Both the position numbers and the translations under genes were made by a program. A DNA stretch of 64,000 nt from Patescibacteria group bacterium (GTDB taxonomy: Bacteria; Patescibacteriota; Patescibacteriia; Patescibacteriales; UBA12465). Of this stretch, positions 10,027-51,739 are shown one piece after another (the first letter of the stretch is position 1; each line of letters opens with the position of its first letter). Location of the stretch: contig JBAZZR010000001.1 of the NCBI GenBank assembly GCA_041658665.1, positions 384,576 through 448,575 of the forward strand, written 5' to 3'. The notes beneath the pieces were generated by a model. The model searched no databases, was not told the DNA's origin, and was given only the letters and a program-made list of their open reading frames with translations.

Positions 10027-11358
10027 ATGGCTAAAAAAAAGCCGGAAAAAATTAAAAAACATCAGGTTAATAAGAAGTCGGCTAAAAAGAGTCCGATTAT
10101 TAAAGCTAAAGATAATCGTGTTGTTAAGACCGAAAAATTCCGCAAGATAAAGACAACTAATAAGAAAACAAAAAAAGAAAAAAAGTCAGCGGCATTTTCC
10201 CGAACAAAGGTTCATCGATCGAAGGATTTAGTGCGGGTCAGGGAAGAACATATAGCAGTAAAACCAACGGAAGAGGCGATAAAAAAGTTAATTGATAAGG
10301 GGCGACTGCGCGGCTTCGTTACCGAAACCGAATTATTATATTTGTTTCCGGAAATTGAAGAGTATGTTTATGACTATGATGTCTTTTTAGGCGAACTGCA
10401 AAGAAGCGGCGTCAGAATTATGGAAGATTCTGGCCGAATTTTAGATACGGCAGAAAAGAAAGCTCAAGAGCCGGTTTTAACGGGTCGCGCCTTAGCTCAT
10501 CAGAACGCTCTTAATATTGATTTATCGAAATTAAGCGCTGACTCTATTCAGATGTATTTGAAAGAAATTGGCAAGGTCCCTCTTTTAAGCGGCGATGAAG
10601 AAGTCGAATTAGCGAAGCGGAAAGAGAAGGGCGATAAGGAGGCGGAGAAAAAAATAATTGAAGCGAATTTGCGTCTCGTTGTTTCTATCGCTAAGAAATT
10701 TGCCGGCGCTAAAGGCATGAGTTTACTGGACTTAATTCAAGAAGGAAATATCGGTTTATTTCGGGCGGTCGAAAAATTTGAGTATCGGAAGGGCTATAAA
10801 TTTTCTACTTATGCGACCTGGTGGATCCGCCAGGCGATTACGCGTGCTTTAGCCGATCAGTCGCGGACTATTCGTATTCCGGTTCATATGGTCGAAAATA
10901 TTAATAAATTTCAACAGGTGCAGCGTAATTTAATCCAAGAATTAGGGCGTGAACCGCTTGCTGACGAAATCGCTTCCGAAATGGGGGAGAGTATTGAAAA
11001 AGTTCGTTATATTATGAAAATATCTCAGGACACTATTTCGCTTGAGACAACTATTGGGGACGATGGCGAGGACTCGACTTTAGAAGATTTTATTGAAGAC
11101 GTTAAGAATATTACGCCGGATCGCGCCGCCGCTTTACAGCTTTTAAAAGATTACGTGAAGAATATTGTCGCTCAGCTATCCCCACGAGAACAGAAGATTT
11201 TAGAAATGCGTTTTGGTTTAATTGACGGTGTTGCCCATACTTTAGAAGAGGTCGGGCAGGAATTCGAGGTTACTCGGGAACGTATTCGTCAGATTGAGTC
11301 TAAAGCCCTAGAGAAGATTCGGAAGTTTAAGGGTTTAGAGAAGTTGAGGGATTATTAA
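10027..11358 (+). CDS. rpoD: RNA polymerase primary sigma factor (sigma-70)
   Basis: 443 aa. Lys-rich N-terminus. Conserved regions 2.x ([16 protein letters not shown]), 3 and 4.2 ([20 protein letters not shown]). Confidence 0.9.
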
Positions 11359-11512: not shown

Positions 11513-11564
11513 ATATATACAAAATGTTTTAAAACATTTTTGTTTTTTGAAAGTAATTTAATAT

Positions 11565-11867
11565 TCCCGGGTAGCGCAGCGGTAGCGCAGTTGGCTGTGA
11601 ACAATAAACGCAGCTTCCTCAGGTAACTGAGGTCGAATAACGAGGTGAATTGTCTGGAAGCCTAAATCCGTAAGGACATGGTAATCAGCAGCCAAGCCCT
11701 GACTTGTCAGGAAAGGTTCAGAGACTATCTCGAAAGAGAGTAGGTCCGTCTAGGAGACGGCCCGAAGCGCCTCGCGCCCTTATAGGGTGATGATATAGTC
11801 CACCCCATTAAGAAATTAGTGGATAAGTGTAACCAATTGGTCGTCGGTTCGAATCCGACCCCGGGAG
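11565..11867 (+). tRNA. tRNA-Asn(GUU) interrupted in the anticodon loop by a group I intron
   Basis: Exon 1 is 11565-11598 and exon 2 is 11830-11867. Together they fold into a full cloverleaf: acceptor TCCCGGG/CCCGGGA, D-arm GCGC-AGCGGTA-GCGC, anticodon stem GTTGG/CCAAT, T-arm GTCGG-TTCGAAT-CCGAC. The joined loop CTGTTAA gives anticodon GTT. U1:A72 and G73 fit bacterial tRNA-Asn. No encoded CCA. Confidence 0.8.
11599..11829 (+). ncRNA. Group I self-splicing intron (small, ORF-less, tRNA-type/IC3-like)
   Basis: P1 forms between exon GGCTGT and intron GCAGCT (11610-11615), with a U.G wobble at the splice site. Core strings GGACATGGTAATCAGCAGCCAAGCCC, GGTTCAGAGACTA and GATATAGTCC parallel the Tetrahymena/Azoarcus cores. 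GAAA and GTAA-type hairpins are present. The terminal base is G. Confidence 0.8.
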
Positions 11868-12116: not shown

Positions 12117-12161
12117 GATATGGAGTTTATTGCCTTAGAACAGTATGTTATAATTAAATAT

Positions 12162-12695
12162 ATGAATGAAGAACTATTTGATATTTATGATGAGCAGAAT
12201 AAGCCACTTGGAATGACAAAATCCAGGTCGATTGTGCATAAAGATGGCTCTTGGCACAGAGTAGTGCATATTTATGTTATTAACGACCAGGGACAATATT
12301 TGGTTCATCTCCGCTCTCCTTATAAAGATTTACACCCTAACTGTTGGGATGCCCGCCTTGGTGGTCATGTTGTTGCTGGCATGGATTACGACCAGACTGC
12401 AATTGAGGAATTAAAGCAGGAGATTGGAATTACAGTGAGCCTTAATAATCTAATTTCCAGTAAAATACACAAAAGTGATAACGGCACCAACAGAGAACAT
12501 AGTAAAATATATTTTTATAAATATAATGGCGAACTAACCGATTTACAATTTAACGATAACGAAGTGGTTGAAGTAAAATGGATGTCCCCTGACGATATCA
12601 TCAAATCCATAGAACAAAATCCACAAATTTGGACGACCACCATAAAAGGTTTCCGGGGCATAAATCTTATTCAAGATTCCTTATGGAACAGATAA
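12162..12695 (+). CDS. NUDIX hydrolase
   Basis: Nudix box GGHVVAGMDYDQTAIEELKQEIGI. The ORF opens at 12120, but that codon abuts the terminator. ATG 12162 follows an extended -10 (TGTTATAAT, 12143-12151), so the mRNA may be near-leaderless. Confidence 0.7.
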   Translation: MNEELFDIYDEQNKPLGMTKSRSIVHKDGSWHRVVHIYVINDQGQYLVHLRSPYKDLHPNCWDARLGGHVVAGMDYDQTAIEELKQEIGITVSLNNLISSKIHKSDNGTNREHSKIYFYKYNGELTDLQFNDNEVVEVKWMSPDDIIKSIEQNPQIWTTTIKGFRGINLIQDSLWNR

Positions 12696-14424: not shown

Positions 14425-14490
14425 GCTTCGAACATCGTCAGCGACTCCGAGCAAATAGACAAAATAGCACTAATGTGCTATTTTTGTTGT
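14425..14490 (+). repeat. Junction module copy (tRNA-3'-end-like segment plus terminator) with no ORF in front
   Basis: GCTTCGAACATCGTCAGCGACTCCGAGCA, then an AAAATAGCAC-TAAT-GTGCTATTTT hairpin. Confidence 0.5.
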
Positions 14491-14513: not shown

Positions 14514-14909
14514 ATGGATTCAAGTAATTGGTACTCACAATTAGTTAAACCATCTTGGGCGCCACCATCATGGTTATTTGGCCCAGTATGGTCATTCCTG
14601 TACGTTCTTATATTAGTTTCTTTTAGTAAGGTTGTTTTAATGTTTATTGAAAAGAAGATATCATTTCTAGTGTTTTTGCCGTTTATTCTTAATATTATTT
14701 TTAATTTATCTTTTACCTATTTCCAGTTTGGCCTTAAAAGTAATATATTAGCAGCTATAGATATATTGTTTGTATTAGGAACATTAATTTGGGCGATTAT
14801 AGTTATTTATCCTCACTCACACTGGGTGTCTTATGCTCAAATTCCATATCTTCTTTGGGTCGCTTTTGCGACTGTGCTTCAATTAACTATTACATACTTA
14901 AATAAATAA
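14514..14909 (+). CDS. tspO: TspO/MBR family tryptophan-rich sensory protein
   Basis: 131 aa, multi-TM. N-terminal WYSQLVKPSWAPPSWLFGPVWSFLY signature. Confidence 0.75.
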   Translation: MDSSNWYSQLVKPSWAPPSWLFGPVWSFLYVLILVSFSKVVLMFIEKKISFLVFLPFILNIIFNLSFTYFQFGLKSNILAAIDILFVLGTLIWAIIVIYPHSHWVSYAQIPYLLWVAFATVLQLTITYLNK

Positions 14910-14965: not shown

Positions 14966-15030
14966 GTTCCAACCATATCTCAACCTCGGAGCAAGTAGAC
15001 AAAATAGCACTTTCGTGCTATTTTTGTTAT
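14966..15030 (+). repeat. Junction module copy (tRNA-3'-end-like segment plus terminator)
   Basis: GTTCCAACCATATCTCAACCTCGGAGCA, then an AAAATAGCAC-TTTC-GTGCTATTTT hairpin with the same stem as the copy at 14461. Confidence 0.5.
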
Positions 15031-15058
15031 TAATGAATTAAATAATATACAAGTTTCT

Positions 15059-24978: not shown

Positions 24979-25007
24979 TTGACAAAAATATAGTTCCATG
25001 CTATATT
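24979..25007 (+). promoter_or_regulatory. Reiterated promoter module, copy A
   Basis: TTGACAAAAATATAGTTCCATGCTATATT: TTGACA, 17-nt spacer, extended -10 TGCTATATT, then a T-run. Confidence 0.55.
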
Positions 25008-25142: not shown

Positions 25143-26738
25143 ATGGAAAATAGTGTAGTTAGTTCCTATTCGGATTTGCTTGATAAGACGAATCTGATAT
25201 TTGTTAAGCTTTTGGAGTGGGAAAGTAAGGAAGATATTGAGCCAAAATATTATATGCAGCGGCTTGAAGAGAATCCTGTCCAGACTATGAGCTTAAGAAT
25301 AGTTCCCAGCGCAGTAGTCTTTTTTCTAAAAAGATTATTTTGTATTTTAACCGGCATGATTGCCGAGAAAGCGATGTTGGAGATCGATAAAAAAACTGAG
25401 ACAAGATTATTAAAAAATATGGTCTGGGCAGGAGTTTATGCCCTAGATCTATTAAAGAGTAGTTTATCTCAGTACAGTGGCATAAAATGTTTGTCAGTAT
25501 CTAATAATAAATTGACCTGCACCTTTAAGTCTCCTTTAGACCTGGGTGCGGTTAAAGACATTCTTAGCGATCCTTATTCGAGTATTAATCAATTAGTGGT
25601 TGAAAGACGAGAGGAGAATAGAATTCTTAATTATTATTTGATGATTGACGGACGGGACGTCCTAGTAGTCTCGAATTATAGTATTAGTTTCATATATAAA
25701 GTCACGTCCGATGATTGGGAAGAATATCTACAGATGTTTGTAGAGATTATCGCTCGTGTTCATCGCGATTTACTTTATCGAGAAGGTCTTAGAAACGTAT
25801 TTATGAATACCTATAATGCCTTCTATCGTTTAATGTCTCCTGAAATGTTCAATGATAGTGAATTAACGTCATGGTTTGAAAGCGTTAGGAAACTGGTACT
25901 TGCAGGAGGAATACAGAAAGATAAGTCATTTTCTGAAACAAAAAAATCGAGACTTTATCATAAAACTGATAAACTCTATCGATTGGTACAACCACTGTCT
26001 CATCTAAACTATATAGTCGTCTGTCCGGACAAGAAGGAACTCTATATTAGTTTTAGACCATTTTTTGATTTTAAGGCGATTGGAGAATATTTAGGAAAAA
26101 CCAATTTGTCGCTAGATCAAAGAAAAGAAGACGTGGAGTACAAAAAGGTTCTAAAGAAAGGAGCCGGGCGTCGAAAATCTGAAGGGATTATACATGTTAC
26201 ATTCAATGATGTTATTAATCAGAAGAAACAAAGGATCGCTTCGTTCGACGGCCAATCGATTATTGTTTTGTATTTAGCTGATCAAGAAATTTTTGCAGAA
26301 GGACTCCAATTATTTAATTATATATACTATAATTGGATTTATTATACCTCCTGGATTCCAACCGCGGATGTTCCGCATTCTGACTTAGATAGTGTTGATA
26401 GAACAGTAATTACCAATATTGATATTTTATTTCATATTTATTCAACATTTTTGGGCGTTATCTTAAGTAAAGAATATTTTCGCTCAGATCGTATGAATAC
26501 CTTAACGACGAAAGAATGGTTGATTAATTTTTTAAGTATTGATCCCGCCCTTCGTTATGAAGAGAAAATGTTGCATTTATTACAGTTCATGAAAGACAAA
26601 ATTAATTTGCAGGAATTTTTAAGTCATACGACGGGGGATAGTTTCGAAGATGATGAAGCTAGAAAAAGGTTAATCGATTTATATGCTAAATTGTGTTCGC
26701 AATTATCGCTTACTCAGGCGTATGTAAATTCATTGTGA
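25143..26738 (+). CDS. Hypothetical protein (orphan 2)
   Basis: 531-aa ORF. No recognisable catalytic motif. Apparent internal duplication (see findings). Confidence 0.65.
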   Translation: MENSVVSSYSDLLDKTNLIFVKLLEWESKEDIEPKYYMQRLEENPVQTMSLRIVPSAVVFFLKRLFCILTGMIAEKAMLEIDKKTETRLLKNMVWAGVYALDLLKSSLSQYSGIKCLSVSNNKLTCTFKSPLDLGAVKDILSDPYSSINQLVVERREENRILNYYLMIDGRDVLVVSNYSISFIYKVTSDDWEEYLQMFVEIIARVHRDLLYREGLRNVFMNTYNAFYRLMSPEMFNDSELTSWFESVRKLVLAGGIQKDKSFSETKKSRLYHKTDKLYRLVQPLSHLNYIVVCPDKKELYISFRPFFDFKAIGEYLGKTNLSLDQRKEDVEYKKVLKKGAGRRKSEGIIHVTFNDVINQKKQRIASFDGQSIIVLYLADQEIFAEGLQLFNYIYYNWIYYTSWIPTADVPHSDLDSVDRTVITNIDILFHIYSTFLGVILSKEYFRSDRMNTLTTKEWLINFLSIDPALRYEEKMLHLLQFMKDKINLQEFLSHTTGDSFEDDEARKRLIDLYAKLCSQLSLTQAYVNSL

Positions 26739-26974: not shown

Positions 26975-28168
26975 ATGAAACTAGTAGCTAATAGTGGCGC
27001 GACTGGTAATGCAACGCTAGCAATCAGATGGTGTTTGGAGGATGAGGAAATTTCGGCATTGCGTGAATTAGTAATTACTGATCCTTACATTTTATTTGTT
27101 GTTGTTCATAAGCATGAAAATGTTGATCGGAAACTGGTTCGTCTCAACGAACTAATGGTTTTTTTGCCTCTTAATAATCCAGGTGATAATACGGTGTTCG
27201 CTACGATTGTTTGGCATAAGACTAAAAAGAAATTGGACGAATGGTGTCTGGAGAGGAATAAATATGGGTGTTATAAAACTGATTTTTATGACATTGAAGA
27301 TGATTCATTACGACATGGCGATTTAGGAAAAACCCGGATGGAGGTTAATGTTTCATCGGAATTTTTTGCTAAAGAACCGCCGGCCTGGGAAAAAAAGTGG
27401 GTTAATTTATGGTTTGGTGGGAAAAGGGCGCGTAATAGTTGCGATTATGGTAAACGCCGTATGCTGGCTTATTCGGTTCAGCCGATTCCGGTTCTAGTGT
27501 TTATAGTATTTATTACCATTTTTCGTTTTTTGGCAGCGGCCTTTTGGATTTTAATTCGGACTAAGACTAAGGTTGATTTACGGCCTATTATTCACCCTTT
27601 TAAATACGAAAGCGATGATGTTTGGTTTTACGCTACATCAGCCCGGAATTTTTATGAAAAGGATAAAGATGGTAAAGATAGGGCAACAGCAGTCTGGCTT
27701 TATCACCCCGTAACTATCATCGTTATGGCAGTAGTACTTTTTTATATTACCATAGATCAACCCAGGTTATTTGTGAGTCTACATATTCCTTCGGTCTGGT
27801 GGGCATATATTCTATTAAGTCCCATCTTTACTACTCTGTTAGCTATTGGAGCCATTGTTGTCGCGGTAGTTATCGTCGGACTAGTAAAACTAGGTTTCTT
27901 GATTTTTAGCCGGTTTTTTCCCTCTAAAAGTGAAGAACAATCGCAGGAACTTCTCGAAGAAAAAACGGCTGAGCAAATAAAAGCCGAGCAGGAAGAAGCG
28001 GATCTTAAATTAAAGCTTAAATTAGTTGAAGATAATTTGACCTGGCTCGCCTGTAATCAAGAACAACCGGTTCCGAAACTCAGCGCTCTGCCTAGAGAAA
28101 AACGAACTGTGTATTTACACTTTTTAGATTTAAAATCAAAATGGTGTAAACCCTTCCCCGGAGTCTAA
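26975..28168 (+). CDS. Hypothetical membrane protein (orphan 3)
   Basis: 397 aa. Soluble N-terminal domain of about 170 aa, about 4 TM helices, and an acidic coiled-coil C-terminus. AAGGAG RBS. Confidence 0.65.
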   Translation: MKLVANSGATGNATLAIRWCLEDEEISALRELVITDPYILFVVVHKHENVDRKLVRLNELMVFLPLNNPGDNTVFATIVWHKTKKKLDEWCLERNKYGCYKTDFYDIEDDSLRHGDLGKTRMEVNVSSEFFAKEPPAWEKKWVNLWFGGKRARNSCDYGKRRMLAYSVQPIPVLVFIVFITIFRFLAAAFWILIRTKTKVDLRPIIHPFKYESDDVWFYATSARNFYEKDKDGKDRATAVWLYHPVTIIVMAVVLFYITIDQPRLFVSLHIPSVWWAYILLSPIFTTLLAIGAIVVAVVIVGLVKLGFLIFSRFFPSKSEEQSQELLEEKTAEQIKAEQEEADLKLKLKLVEDNLTWLACNQEQPVPKLSALPREKRTVYLHFLDLKSKWCKPFPGV

Positions 28169-28193
28169 TCGGAGTCAAGTGAATTCTTATCTC

Positions 28194-28227
28194 AAATCCC
28201 AGACTGATCAAAAGTCTGGGATTTTTA
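28194..28227 (+). terminator. Intrinsic terminator
   Basis: AATCCCAGACT-N7-AGTCTGGGATT hairpin followed by a T-run. Confidence 0.75.
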
Positions 28228-28284
28228 TTTGATTTATGCTATATTTAAAGTGGTTTACTAATTTAAACTAAATAGTTTTAATTC

Positions 28285-28310
28285 TTTTACAAAATGCTTT
28301 TAGGGATGGA
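28285..28310. repeat. Inverted repeat, left arm
   Basis: TTTTACAAAATGCTTTTAGGGATGGA. Its reverse complement matches 28730-28755 at 25 of 26 positions. Confidence 0.6.
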
Positions 28311-28340
28311 ATAAATAATAAACTGTACTCCAAAAAGGAG

Positions 28341-28676
28341 GTGATTATATTGGGTCTAAAGTATGAATCGATTAACATTTTTCGTTCAAATTTACCGGCC
28401 ATAATTCATCCGTACAATGTCCGCGTTATCGCCGTTCGTCCTTGGTGGCATTTCTTTTTGTTTACAAACGGCCAAACCGAGGCGATATTTCTTAAGCTGA
28501 ATTGTCTAGATAAAGAATCTGTGCTTTTAGGAATTACGGCCGCTCTTAAGAAGGAAGGAGGTATTTACGCCAAAACTTTTCTTAAATGTATTAAACACGT
28601 TACCATTTCTCAGGGACGTGAAACCAACCTAAAAATTGACTGGTCCGAAAAAGATCAGTGCCTACAACTTGAATAG
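28341..28676 (+). CDS. Hypothetical protein (orphan 4)
   Basis: 111-aa ORF (GTG in the track; in-frame TTG at 28350) preceded by a strong AAGGAGG. Bracketed by the 26-bp inverted repeats. Confidence 0.5.
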   Translation: MIILGLKYESINIFRSNLPAIIHPYNVRVIAVRPWWHFFLFTNGQTEAIFLKLNCLDKESVLLGITAALKKEGGIYAKTFLKCIKHVTISQGRETNLKIDWSEKDQCLQLE

Positions 28677-28729
28677 CGTTTCTCGTTATCAAGAATGGGA
28701 GCTTATATTTCCGTTCCATCTATAAGCTC

Positions 28730-28755
28730 TCCATCCCCAAAAGCATTTTGTAAAA
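28730..28755. repeat. Inverted repeat, right arm
   Basis: TCCATCCCCAAAAGCATTTTGTAAAA. It ends 2 nt before the -35 of promoter copy B. Confidence 0.6.
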
Positions 28756-28757
28756 AA

Positions 28758-28804
28758 TTGACAGAAATATAGCCTAATGCTATATTTTTTTATTACTTTA
28801 ACAA
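28758..28804 (+). promoter_or_regulatory. Reiterated promoter/leader module, copy B
   Basis: TTGACAGAAATATAGCCTAATGCTATATTTTTTTATTACTTTAACAA. 5 mismatches in 53 nt relative to copy C. Confidence 0.55.
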
Positions 28805-28836
28805 TCAATTTTATTTAATTAATAGAGGAGTCACTC

Positions 28837-29202
28837 ATGTTAACGATTGCTGTTATTTTTATATCTACCGCTCTTTTACTCTACTCTACGGCTATTTGGT
28901 CGGAAAGAATTATAGGGGTGTTAAAATTATGGATGATAAGAATTTTTATTTCGGCTTTTGTCTGTGACTTATTAGCGACGTCTCTGATGGCTTATCAAGC
29001 GACAACTAGGTTCGAGCTTAATGCCCATAGTCGCTCGGGTTATATAGCCTTAGGTATCATGGGGTTACATTTTATTTGGGCCATTATCGCCATAAGATGC
29101 AAAGGTCAAGCGGAAAAATATTTTCATCGTTTCTCCCTATTGGCTTGGCTCATTTGGTTAGCCGCTTTTATTAGCGGTGTGCCTAAAGTTCATTTTTTTT
29201 AA
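28837..29202 (+). CDS. Small 4-TM membrane protein (possibly TIGR03987/HsmA-like)
   Basis: 121 aa with four hydrophobic helices. The family name is from recollection only. Confidence 0.5.
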   Translation: MLTIAVIFISTALLLYSTAIWSERIIGVLKLWMIRIFISAFVCDLLATSLMAYQATTRFELNAHSRSGYIALGIMGLHFIWAIIAIRCKGQAEKYFHRFSLLAWLIWLAAFISGVPKVHFF

Positions 29203-29205
29203 CAG

Positions 29206-29237
29206 AAAATCCTCGTCAGCTGATGGGGATTTTTTTA
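29206..29237 (+). terminator. Intrinsic terminator
   Basis: ATCCTC-N12-GGGGAT hairpin (one G.U pair) followed by TTTTTTT. Confidence 0.55.
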
Positions 29238-29353
29238 TTTAGATTATTTAATTTCTAGTTTCTCAATTTAAAGTTTTTGCTTCGTCGATTAATGTCCCCG
29301 TCCTATTTTTAATCATTAGTACCTTTAAGAAATTGAAAAAAATTGAATAAAAA

Positions 29354-29400
29354 TTGACAAAAATATGGCATAATGCTATATTTTTTTATTACCTTAACAA
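29354..29400 (+). promoter_or_regulatory. Reiterated promoter/leader module, copy C
   Basis: TTGACAAAAATATGGCATAATGCTATATTTTTTTATTACCTTAACAA. Confidence 0.55.
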
Positions 29401-29438
29401 TTAATTAACCAATAAACATAAGTGTAGCAAAGGAGTTC

Positions 29439-30560
29439 ATGATGAATCAGAAAATCAAAGATTTTTTTCAGAGATTTTTAAATCCGGCTGGAATCAGAAT
29501 TAATGGGAAGCGTCCTTGGGATCTTCAAGTCCATAATGATGGTTTCTATGACCGTGTCTTAAAACAAGGTTCCTTGGGTTTAGGGGAGTCTTATATGGAT
29601 AGCTGGTGGGACTGTGAGTCTTTAGACGAATTTTTTAATCGGGTTATTAAAGCTGACTTGGGGAGCAAAATACGTTGGGATCTTAAAAGTTATCTGTTTG
29701 CTCTCAAGAACATATTAATTAATCAGCAAAGAAAGAGTAAGGCGCGTGAAGTTGGCCAAAGTCATTATGACTTAGGGAATGATTTATATGCCGCTATGCT
29801 TGACCCTTCTTTGTCTTATAGCTGTGGCTATTGGTCTAAAGCACAAAATTTAGCGCAAGCTCAAGAAGCTAAACTTGAGCTTATTTGTCGCAAGTTAAAT
29901 TTAAAAGCGGGAGATGATGTTTTAGATATCGGCGGCGGCTGGGGTAATTTTGCTAGATATGCTGCCAAAAAATACGGCGTTCATGTTGACGTCGTAACAG
30001 TTTCTCGAAAACAAGTGGAGTTAGGCAAAAAATTATGTGCCGATTTAGACGTCTGTTTTTTATTGCAAGACTACCGCGAGATTCAGGGCTTCTATAATCA
30101 TATAATCTCCGTCGGAATGATTGAACACGTAGGGTATAAAAATTATCGCACTTATATGCAGACTGTGGCCGATAGTTTAAAAGACGATGGGTTATTTCTC
30201 CTCCATACTATTGGGAGGAATAAATCTACCAGATTTAATGACCGGTGGATAGCGAAATATAGTTTTGTTAATTCTATGTTACCGTCGATGAGACAACTAT
30301 CTAAAGCTATAGAAAATTTATTCGTTCTTGAAGACCTGCATAGCTTTGGAGCGGATTACGATAGAACGCTTATGGTTTGGTTTGCTAATTTCGAAAAAAA
30401 TTGGCCGGATCTAAGAGAAAAATATGGCGATAGGTTTTATCGTCAATGGAAATATTATCTACTTTCTTGTGCGGGGGCTTTCCGGGCTCGAAAGAATCAG
30501 GTTTGGCAGATCGTTTTATCTAAAAATGGTGTGCCCGGCGGATACAGATCTGTTCGTTAA
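29439..30560 (+). CDS. cfa: Cyclopropane-fatty-acyl-phospholipid synthase
   Basis: 373 aa, colinear with E. coli Cfa. Shared strings include LGLGESYMD.WW, GQSHYDLGNDL, VLDIGGGWG, LLQDYR, GMIEHVG, LLHTIG, FGADYDRTLM.W and CAGAFRAR. Confidence 0.9.
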   Translation: MMNQKIKDFFQRFLNPAGIRINGKRPWDLQVHNDGFYDRVLKQGSLGLGESYMDSWWDCESLDEFFNRVIKADLGSKIRWDLKSYLFALKNILINQQRKSKAREVGQSHYDLGNDLYAAMLDPSLSYSCGYWSKAQNLAQAQEAKLELICRKLNLKAGDDVLDIGGGWGNFARYAAKKYGVHVDVVTVSRKQVELGKKLCADLDVCFLLQDYREIQGFYNHIISVGMIEHVGYKNYRTYMQTVADSLKDDGLFLLHTIGRNKSTRFNDRWIAKYSFVNSMLPSMRQLSKAIENLFVLEDLHSFGADYDRTLMVWFANFEKNWPDLREKYGDRFYRQWKYYLLSCAGAFRARKNQVWQIVLSKNGVPGGYRSVR

Positions 30561-30587
30561 TTATTAGTCGGTTCTTAATTATTAATC

Positions 30588-30620
30588 AGAGGCGTTTGGA
30601 TTTCCAGACGCCTTCTTTTT
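30588..30620 (+). terminator. Intrinsic terminator after cfa
   Basis: GGCGTTTGG-N5-CCAGACGCC hairpin followed by TTCTTTTT. Confidence 0.75.
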
Positions 30621-30626
30621 ATATTT

Positions 30627-30655
30627 TTGTCTTATCTAAGCAAATTTGCTATAAT
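30627..30655 (+). promoter_or_regulatory. Promoter of the efflux operon
   Basis: TTGTCT, 17-nt spacer, TATAAT. Confidence 0.5.
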
Positions 30656-30708
30656 TTTAAGGTCAGCCCGGCTATTCGCCGTTAATATTTTAGTAGATTA
30701 TTTAATTT

Positions 30709-51644: not shown

Positions 51645-51678
51645 ATATTTAAGTCTAATCTAATTTAGACTTAAATAT
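51645..51678. promoter_or_regulatory. Perfect palindrome 1 (candidate operator)
   Basis: ATATTTAAGTCTAA-tctaat-TTAGACTTAAATAT with 14-bp arms, 13 nt upstream of the HTH gene start. Confidence 0.5.
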
Positions 51679-51705
51679 AAAAATAAGCTAATAAAAAATA
51701 AAAAT

Positions 51706-51739
51706 TTATTTAAGTCTAATATTTATTAGACTTAAATAA
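51706..51739. promoter_or_regulatory. Perfect palindrome 2 (candidate operator, same half-site)
   Basis: TTATTTAAGTCTAAT-attt-ATTAGACTTAAATAA with 15-bp arms. Confidence 0.5.

Follow-up and report, generated by a model that had tools for sequence, protein, structure and literature searches.

What is the function of a long inverted repeat that brackets a single small gene in a reduced bacterial genome? The question is raised by a locus within a 64,000-nucleotide stretch of DNA (henceforth the window, 64 kb), which forms part of an 821,845-bp contig of a Patescibacteria metagenome-assembled genome (MAG). Two 26-nt arms, TTTTACAAAATGCTTTTAGGGATGGA at positions 28285-28310 and TCCATCCCCAAAAGCATTTTGTAAAA at 28730-28755, enclose an orphan gene encoding a protein of 108 amino acids (aa). 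The arms are reverse-complementary at 25 of 26 positions, with A28302 versus C28738 as the sole mismatch. Coordinates refer to the window, and features are on the plus strand unless stated otherwise. The repeat was first described in a sequence-based annotation of the window (the initial annotation), and its arm coordinates, the 25/26 complementarity and the 419-nt interval between the arms were all reproduced when we checked the sequence. Three readings had been offered there without ranking: a small transposon-like insertion, an invertible segment, and a long-range RNA helix enclosing the coding region. This list found partial support, in that the RNA helix alone requires nothing beyond the sequence at hand. 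We tentatively favor a model, to which we assign a probability of roughly 40%, in which the arms act as a clamp between the 5′ and 3′ untranslated regions (UTRs) of the orphan mRNA. The clamp would be a substrate for double-strand-specific RNases, and its two strands are possibly the former ends of an inserted cassette.

The repeat stands alone in the window. A scan with the 26-mer at up to three mismatches returned only two sites, which are the arms themselves, and none of 100 dinucleotide shuffles yielded two matches; a chance origin of the repeat is therefore excluded. Further copies, which the initial annotation had proposed to look for, do not occur within the 64 kb, where even a tolerance of eight mismatches gave nothing above chance. 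The arm pair is the top-ranked inverted repeat across the window, and no other long inverted repeat of comparable kind brackets a gene there. A scan of related Patescibacteria loci gave none either, a negative of minor value given that its filter overlooked even the known repeat. Its edges are sharp. On the inner side, complementarity ends immediately. On the outer side, only TTAATT at 28278-28283 can be added, pairing with AATTGA at 28756-61 across a bulged C28284; this optional helix extension is seen in minimum free energy (MFE), centroid and duplex folds. Inside the orphan gene, at 28522-28534, lies a partial third copy of the left-arm core in the same sense (TGCTTTTAGGAAT, 12 of 13 positions). 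In a second strain, described below, an adjacent double substitution (GGA to GAG, Gly to Glu) shifts the mismatch of this copy by one position and the 12/13 match is kept. The partial copy could be an alternative pairing partner for the right arm.

Both arms lie in the untranslated ends of the orphan gene, the left one upstream and the right one downstream, and the genes and signals around them are arranged in the order 397-aa gene, terminator, extended −10 element, left arm, Shine-Dalgarno (SD) sequence and orphan gene, hairpin, right arm, promoter B, hsmA, terminator, promoter C, and a cyclopropane-fatty-acid synthase gene (CMAS). On its left, the unit is bounded by the intrinsic terminator of the 397-aa gene (28194-28232; 12-bp stem and T run), which keeps its stem in the second strain and has an altered loop there. 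Next comes the extended −10 element TGCTATATT at 28237-28245, accompanied by a weak −35; read from the sequence, it is predicted to drive the orphan gene from a transcription start at about 28252. The second strain has TGTTATATT at this position and retains TG-n-TATATT, and a stretch that is invariant between the strains begins at about 28252, the same place as the predicted start. Between the left arm and the gene, a small hairpin (CUCC-AAAAA-GGAG, 28328-28341) that is present in MFE and centroid folds and invariant between strains overlaps the SD sequence GGAGG at 28337-41. In the 3′UTR, a 9-bp hairpin with a 13-nt loop (28699-28707 / 28721-28729), likewise invariant, abuts the right arm and stacks on the long-range helix.

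Promoter B of hsmA (28758-28786; TTGACA-17-TATATT with TG) agrees with the consensus at 11 of 12 positions and is also invariant between the strains. Its −35 (TTGACA, 28758-63) begins 2 nt past the right arm. The initial annotation had listed this 2-nt distance together with the GGAGG ribosome-binding site, the 9-bp hairpin and the extended −10, and each of them is present as described. The hsmA gene itself (HsmA family, TIGR03987; NCBIfam match at 86.5 bits) occupies 28837-29202. A terminator scan detected no terminator-like site between 28677 and 29203, and the first terminator 3′ of the orphan gene is that of hsmA at 29204-29235. Both arms lie between the predicted transcription start and this next terminator. 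An Rfam search of 28150-28900 found no family even at E = 10, with only two chance-level matches on the upstream terminator.

From this layout, the proposed mechanism would run as follows. Transcription from the extended −10 at 28237-45 would start at about 28252 and proceed through the orphan gene and the right arm into hsmA, read-through being expected because no terminator lies between the two genes. Once transcribed, the right arm would pair with the left arm to form a helix of 26 bp with one A·C mismatch, or of 31 bp including the outer extension. The whole coding region would be held in a closed loop of some 420 nt, and the 3′ hairpin would stack on the helix. Long, near-perfect duplexes are classic substrates of RNase III-type enzymes. 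The helix would probably define the ends of the orphan mRNA, hold them together, and separate the message from that of hsmA; the net effect on the orphan mRNA might be stabilizing or destabilizing. We infer the transcription start, the co-transcription, the RNase cleavage and the selective value of the clamp.

RNA folding points to the same structure. The MFE and centroid folds of 28252-28790 both close the arm helix. The fold z-score is −5.7 to −6.2 when the arms are included and −1.6 for the interior alone, and the arms are therefore the special part of the transcript. Their duplex energy amounts to −36.3 kcal/mol, and pair probabilities reach 0.8-1.0 at 25 of the 26 positions for all three modeled 3′ ends (past the arm, at the start of hsmA and at its terminator), as well as in the second strain. 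The arms are wholly untranslated, ending 27 nt before the SD sequence and beginning 54 nt after the stop codon. Since they lie outside the reading frame, translating ribosomes would not open the helix. The long-range helix suggested by the initial annotation accordingly dominates the folds, while the co-transcription of its two strands is a prediction.

Several characterized RNAs provide a context for such a clamp. In the processing stems of 16S and 23S rRNA and in the tac/fbi 5′-3′ pairing of hok mRNA, a long-range helix controls maturation or keeps the RNA inert, hok being a toxin gene of roughly 50 aa with an antisense RNA partner. Unlike these systems, the locus described here carries a 108-aa orphan that looks soluble, and it has no evident antisense promoter. 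In icaR of Staphylococcus aureus, the 5′UTR pairs with the 3′UTR and the duplex is an RNase III substrate (PMC3868564). In hbs of Bacillus subtilis, a 14-bp pairing of the 5′- and 3′-UTRs modulates RNase Y cleavage (PMC5737220). The locus resembles both in carrying complementary segments in the two untranslated ends of a short monocistronic message, which would pair over the whole coding region, and its C-rich 3′ element, UCCAUCCCC, recalls the UCCCCUG motif in the 3′UTR of icaR (PMC3868564). In contrast to icaR and hbs, the duplex, at 26-31 bp, is far longer and almost perfect, shares no sequence homology with either, and comes from a Patescibacteria MAG as sequence only; unlike in icaR, it leaves the SD sequence uncovered.

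The enclosed gene is a real coding gene with native-like codon usage. Its frame scores +0.25 bits per codon relative to the long genes of the window, compared with 0.22-0.35 for its neighbors and negative values for the other five frames. The initial annotation had reported a 111-aa open reading frame (ORF), counted from GTG 28341. The ORF is present, but its likelier start is TTG 28350, giving 108 aa (28350-28676), because GTG 28341 overlaps the SD sequence and TTG 28350 lies 8 nt past GGAGG; a second gene caller likewise starts at TTG 28350. The frame is intact in the second strain. The product, recorded at NCBI as 'hypothetical protein WC863_01945', had no match in Pfam, PHROGs, NCBIfam, PADLOC or the PDB sequences. 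No homologue beyond its own 90% cluster was found in 5.8 billion clusters or 1.84 billion representatives, and no paralogue in the window or in 29 related loci. An AlphaFold model built without an alignment reached a pLDDT of 46 and was unusable. Judged from these searches, the gene is a true orphan of restricted lineage.

Other interpretations of the enclosed block were considered and discarded. That the whole block is a structured non-coding RNA was rejected in view of the interior z-score of only −1.6 and the coding signal of the frame. Retron, integron attC and toxin-antitoxin readings were set aside, as no reverse transcriptase, integrase or small hydrophobic peptide is encoded nearby. 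As a separate observation, a 22-nt stretch near the 3′ end of a 531-aa orphan gene (26662-26683) is complementary at 20 of 22 positions to 28362-28383 on the same strand, that is, to codons 5-12 of the 108-aa gene. This match contains an ATCGAT palindrome and, by a rough estimate, is near chance level for the window.

Comparative data come from a second strain. The cluster of the orphan protein holds a variant, P0055, with 9 aa changes, which is encoded on short Logan contigs (L022-L029) from ten sequencing runs; these contigs are mutually identical and colinear with the window. In this strain 2, the orphan gene occupies the same site in the same orientation, carries 14 nucleotide changes in an intact frame, and is flanked by arms that are both identical to those of the window. 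Strain 1 is represented by the ENA/NCBI contig and one Logan contig. These two are the only haplotypes of the locus among 15 billion proteins and their contigs. Contig L002 was rejected as an independent strain, being 100% identical over 11.6 kb. Beyond the strain level, relatives of the neighboring proteins were evaluated as synteny anchors, namely those of the 397-aa protein (43 matches, best 57% identity) and of HsmA (best 64%). Their contexts are unrelated, and they therefore provide no syntenic locus with or without the repeat. A 394-aa gene adjoining hsmA on contig L012 was unconvincing as a homologue of the 397-aa gene (E = 2e-4 over 48 aa), and CMAS as an anchor gave only two proteobacterial matches in GTDB representatives.

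The two strains have diverged unevenly across the locus. For the orphan gene, synonymous divergence (dS) is 0.073 and the ratio of non-synonymous to synonymous divergence (dN/dS) is 0.5, based on 5 synonymous and 9 non-synonymous changes. The corresponding values are 0.47 and 0.08 for hsmA, 0.85 and 0.07 for the 3′ end of the 397-aa gene, and 0.40 and 0.05 for a 639-aa gene. The dS of the orphan gene is thus 5-11 times below that of the three flanking genes (0.40-0.85), and the deficit is significant against both hsmA (p = 2.5e-5) and the 397-aa gene (p = 9e-7). On this evidence, a block from about 28252 to 28832 has a younger common ancestor in the two strains than its flanks, which is the signature of a recently exchanged accessory segment. 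Strong constraint on synonymous sites is a less likely alternative, because the interior is not unusually structured (z = −1.6). Within the block, the two strains show no change in 28252-28349 and 28699-28790, arms included. Its noncoding positions taken together (28252-28349 and 28677-28790) changed at 1 of 212 sites versus 5 per 71.5 synonymous sites of the orphan gene (Fisher p = 0.004).

Several points weigh against the proposed clamp. For the arms alone, 0 of 52 positions changed, which is not significant (p = 0.07-0.23). A control region, the promoter and leader of the 639-aa gene (30616-30708), is equally conserved, with one substitution and one indel in 93 nt, so that conservation of noncoding sequence is no peculiarity of the repeat. 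What the divergence data demonstrate is preservation of the entire untranslated frame of the orphan gene, not selection on the repeat itself. The start site and the co-transcription of the arms are predictions. With identical arms in the two haplotypes, there is no covariation. The lone mismatch is an A·C on the sense RNA and would be a G·U on the antisense RNA. As the helix does not touch the SD sequence, no translational control is evident. The RNase III signature motif was not found within the 64-kb window. Finally, any co-transcribed 26-bp inverted repeat folds in this way, selected or not.

The same figures bear on a reading in which the repeat is a functionless relic, i.e., a recent inverted duplication or recombination scar that has not yet decayed within a recently exchanged block. 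We consider such a relic unlikely. It is in line with the youth of the block (dS 0.073), with arms whose lack of change does not differ significantly from the rate of the gene itself, and with promoter and leader regions that are generally well conserved between the two strains. It is hard to reconcile with the exclusion of a chance origin and with the lower rate of change in the noncoding part of the block than at the synonymous sites of the orphan gene; moreover, a 26-nt inverted duplication placed exactly in both untranslated flanks of one gene requires a mechanism.

Transposition is a further reading. The arms could be the terminal inverted repeats of a mobile insertion cassette, a non-autonomous element with one passenger gene whose transposase is, or formerly was, encoded elsewhere, with RNA pairing as a by-product. 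The repeat is sharply bounded at both ends and encloses a complete orphan gene with its own ribosome-binding site. It lies in an accessory island in which the neighbors are orphans and the adjacent CMAS, whose closest relatives among GTDB representatives are proteobacterial, is lacking from strain 2. By dS, the block is 5-11 times younger than the flanking genes, as would be expected of a recently exchanged accessory unit. However, the low-divergence tract runs 33 nt past the left arm and at least 53 nt past the right arm and is therefore not delimited by the repeat. No presence/absence polymorphism bounded by the repeats was found either: the 10 strain-2 contigs are colinear, the position and orientation of the block agree between the two strains, and an unoccupied site did not come to light among the assemblies.

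Searches for further copies also speak against transposition, with differing force. No additional arm copy exists in the 64 kb even with eight mismatches, and Pfam scans of the ORFs within 10 kb revealed no transposase or recombinase. The 21-mer core of the arm is absent from GTDB representative genomes and JGI metagenome contigs, collections that do not contain this lineage; since promoter B is absent from JGI too, the negative for the repeat there is uninformative for this genome. Phages and plasmids gave no match, and a 17-mer in viral contigs only single chance-level matches. The initial annotation had noted AATT on both sides as a possible target-site duplication. AATT is indeed found on either side, as part of the outer helix extension. 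On the left, however, it is shifted by 1 nt; it is also palindromic, and among random position pairs 5% have a 4-mer in common within 2 nt of the two boundaries, which puts the match at chance level. Of the insertion proposed in that annotation, resembling a miniature inverted-repeat transposable element, the sharply bounded terminal repeats stand, but neither an extra copy in the window nor an empty site does. Overall, we regard the cassette as a rather doubtful explanation of the repeat.

Two families of known elements help to place these observations. Mobile insertion cassettes share their ends with a resident insertion sequence, generate target-site duplications and occur at various sites. 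As in the cassettes carrying qnrD and qnrS2 (PMC3913671, PMC5444012), inverted repeats here enclose a passenger gene with no transposase inside. Unlike in those cassettes, shared insertion-sequence ends, a target-site duplication and varied sites are not shown for this repeat. Correia elements of Neisseria are short and non-coding and have many copies per genome. They are bounded by inverted repeats and can create or abut promoters, and their transcribed repeats bind RNase III and are cleaved or protected by it (PMC2649163). The resemblance lies in the inverted repeats adjoining a promoter, and the Correia elements illustrate that transposon ends and a role as an RNA duplex can coexist (PMC2649163). 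The unit described here differs in being single-copy within the searched DNA, in carrying a 108-aa gene and in lacking sequence similarity to them. An origin of the repeat at the termini of a cassette that was inserted or exchanged is suggested by its sharp limits at 26 bp, by the orphan gene inside it and by the anomalously young age of the block; such a past is compatible with the RNA clamp as the present mechanism.

The assemblies bear most directly on inversion. In this reading, a recombinase encoded elsewhere flips the segment 28311-28729 and uncouples the orphan gene from the extended −10 at 28237-45. The geometry agrees with known invertons, in which inverted repeats of tens of bases flank a segment of a few hundred bases and adjoin promoters (for example PMC9881135 and PMC11602134), and flipping would plausibly turn the orphan gene off. 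Unlike invertons, however, the locus has a single orientation in every assembly of the two strains (for strain 2, ten runs, with six contigs across both arms), no strong internal promoter, and no recombinase nearby. No inverted junction and no contig end at an arm boundary occur among these assemblies, and the A/G difference between the arms is found on the same arm in both strains. Inside the segment, no promoter-like site of at least 9/12 was detected on the minus strand and only weak ones on the plus strand; all that inversion would do is to separate the gene from the promoter outside. The initial annotation had remarked that no invertase gene is visible nearby, and Pfam scans bear this out, with no serine or tyrosine recombinase and no transposase among the ORFs at 18877-41454, i.e., within 10 kb on either side. 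Thus the fitting arm geometry survives from the proposal of an invertible segment, against a single orientation in the assemblies and no recombinase within 10 kb, and inversion appears decidedly unlikely to us.

A related idea is that the arms are recombination sites of a single-gene cassette system, the slot for an exchanged or flipped orphan gene being the interval from a terminator to a family promoter. The 5-11 times younger age of the block relative to its flanks would then be explained, in an island in which CMAS, with its own copy of the same family promoter (promoter C), comes and goes. We consider this very improbable; if true, reduced Patescibacteria genomes would possess a means of cassette exchange or phase switching that has yet to be described in them.

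The location of the arms relative to the promoters raises yet another option, in which they are paired protein-binding sites on the DNA and one regulator, perhaps the orphan protein itself, binds both and couples or loops the two promoters. The left arm would span +33 to +58 of the orphan promoter, and the right arm spans −63 to −38 of promoter B, ending 2 nt from its −35, a position from which activators or UP elements act, and the two strains have the same sequence at both sites. Yet a 26-bp asymmetric site is long for a regulator and has only weak internal dyad symmetry, the sister promoters A and C share only an A tract with the arm, and the orphan protein, with a structure model at pLDDT 46, has no DNA-binding domain match. 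Of such a looping role we think that there is scarcely any prospect.

The promoters around the locus form a small family of their own. Near-consensus promoters at 24979-25007, 28758-28786 and 29354-29382 share TTGACA-N14-TGCTATATT, and each of the three has a palindrome, AATATAGC-N5-GCTATATT, across the spacer and the −10 as a possible operator. Over 58 nt that take in the leader (28753-28810 / 29349-29406), copies B and C share 91% identity; one was therefore copied from the other. Promoter C lies upstream of CMAS (29439-30560). The segment comprising CMAS and promoter C (29261-30594) is missing in strain 2, where 45 nt (L022 1267-1311) are found in place of 1,334 nt. Deletion is suggested by what strain 2 retains of the CMAS terminator, a remnant of its right half, and the closest CMAS relatives among GTDB representatives, which are from Proteobacteria (54% and 46% identity), suggest that the gene was acquired horizontally.

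Upstream of the orphan gene, the 397-aa gene (26975-28168) encodes a membrane protein without a family match. Three of the strain-2 contigs, L022-L024 from separate runs, all start at the same base, equivalent to window position 27991 within the 3′ end of this gene, which hints at strain-variable or repeated sequence just upstream that breaks the assemblies. In other Patescibacteria, homologues of the 397-aa gene adjoin either a divergent tyrosine recombinase gene (Phage_integrase, 299 aa) or a gene for an rve-family transposase (L003-L006, at about 4850-5749 in L003; L008, 4899-5846). Judged by these neighborhoods, the 397-aa gene family may travel with mobile DNA.

Elsewhere in the window, we observed a group I intron (Rfam RF00028, 86 bits) at 11521-11822 on the plus strand, in a 760-nt gap between a sigma-70 gene (10027-11358) and a NUDIX gene (12120-12695). 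ARAGORN detected no tRNA in the window, nor did one appear after 2,500 trial splicings around the intron. A palindromic promoter-like element, TAGACAAAATAGCAC...GTGCTATTTT, is present in two copies (14454-14484 and 15001-15031) that bracket a TspO/MBR gene (14514-14909). Another palindrome, of 32 nt, is duplicated 61 nt apart at 51646-51738.

Taken together, all surviving readings of the repeat are of kinds already known from other systems, and none of them is demonstrated. The element itself is without sequence relatives. With one locus and two haplotypes, known as sequence alone, the case amounts to a lead and not to a discovery. If the proposed helix operates, nature would here offer a particularly clear case of a bacterial mRNA whose own UTRs clamp its two ends together. 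The clamp would be far longer than the icaR or hbs pairings and would come from a phylum in which RNA processing has hardly been described. The locus also draws attention to an orphan gene that appears to have passed between two strains not long ago, in a small island whose strain-specific genes have copies of one promoter, and thereby bears on how the reduced genomes of Patescibacteria acquire new genes and wire them in.

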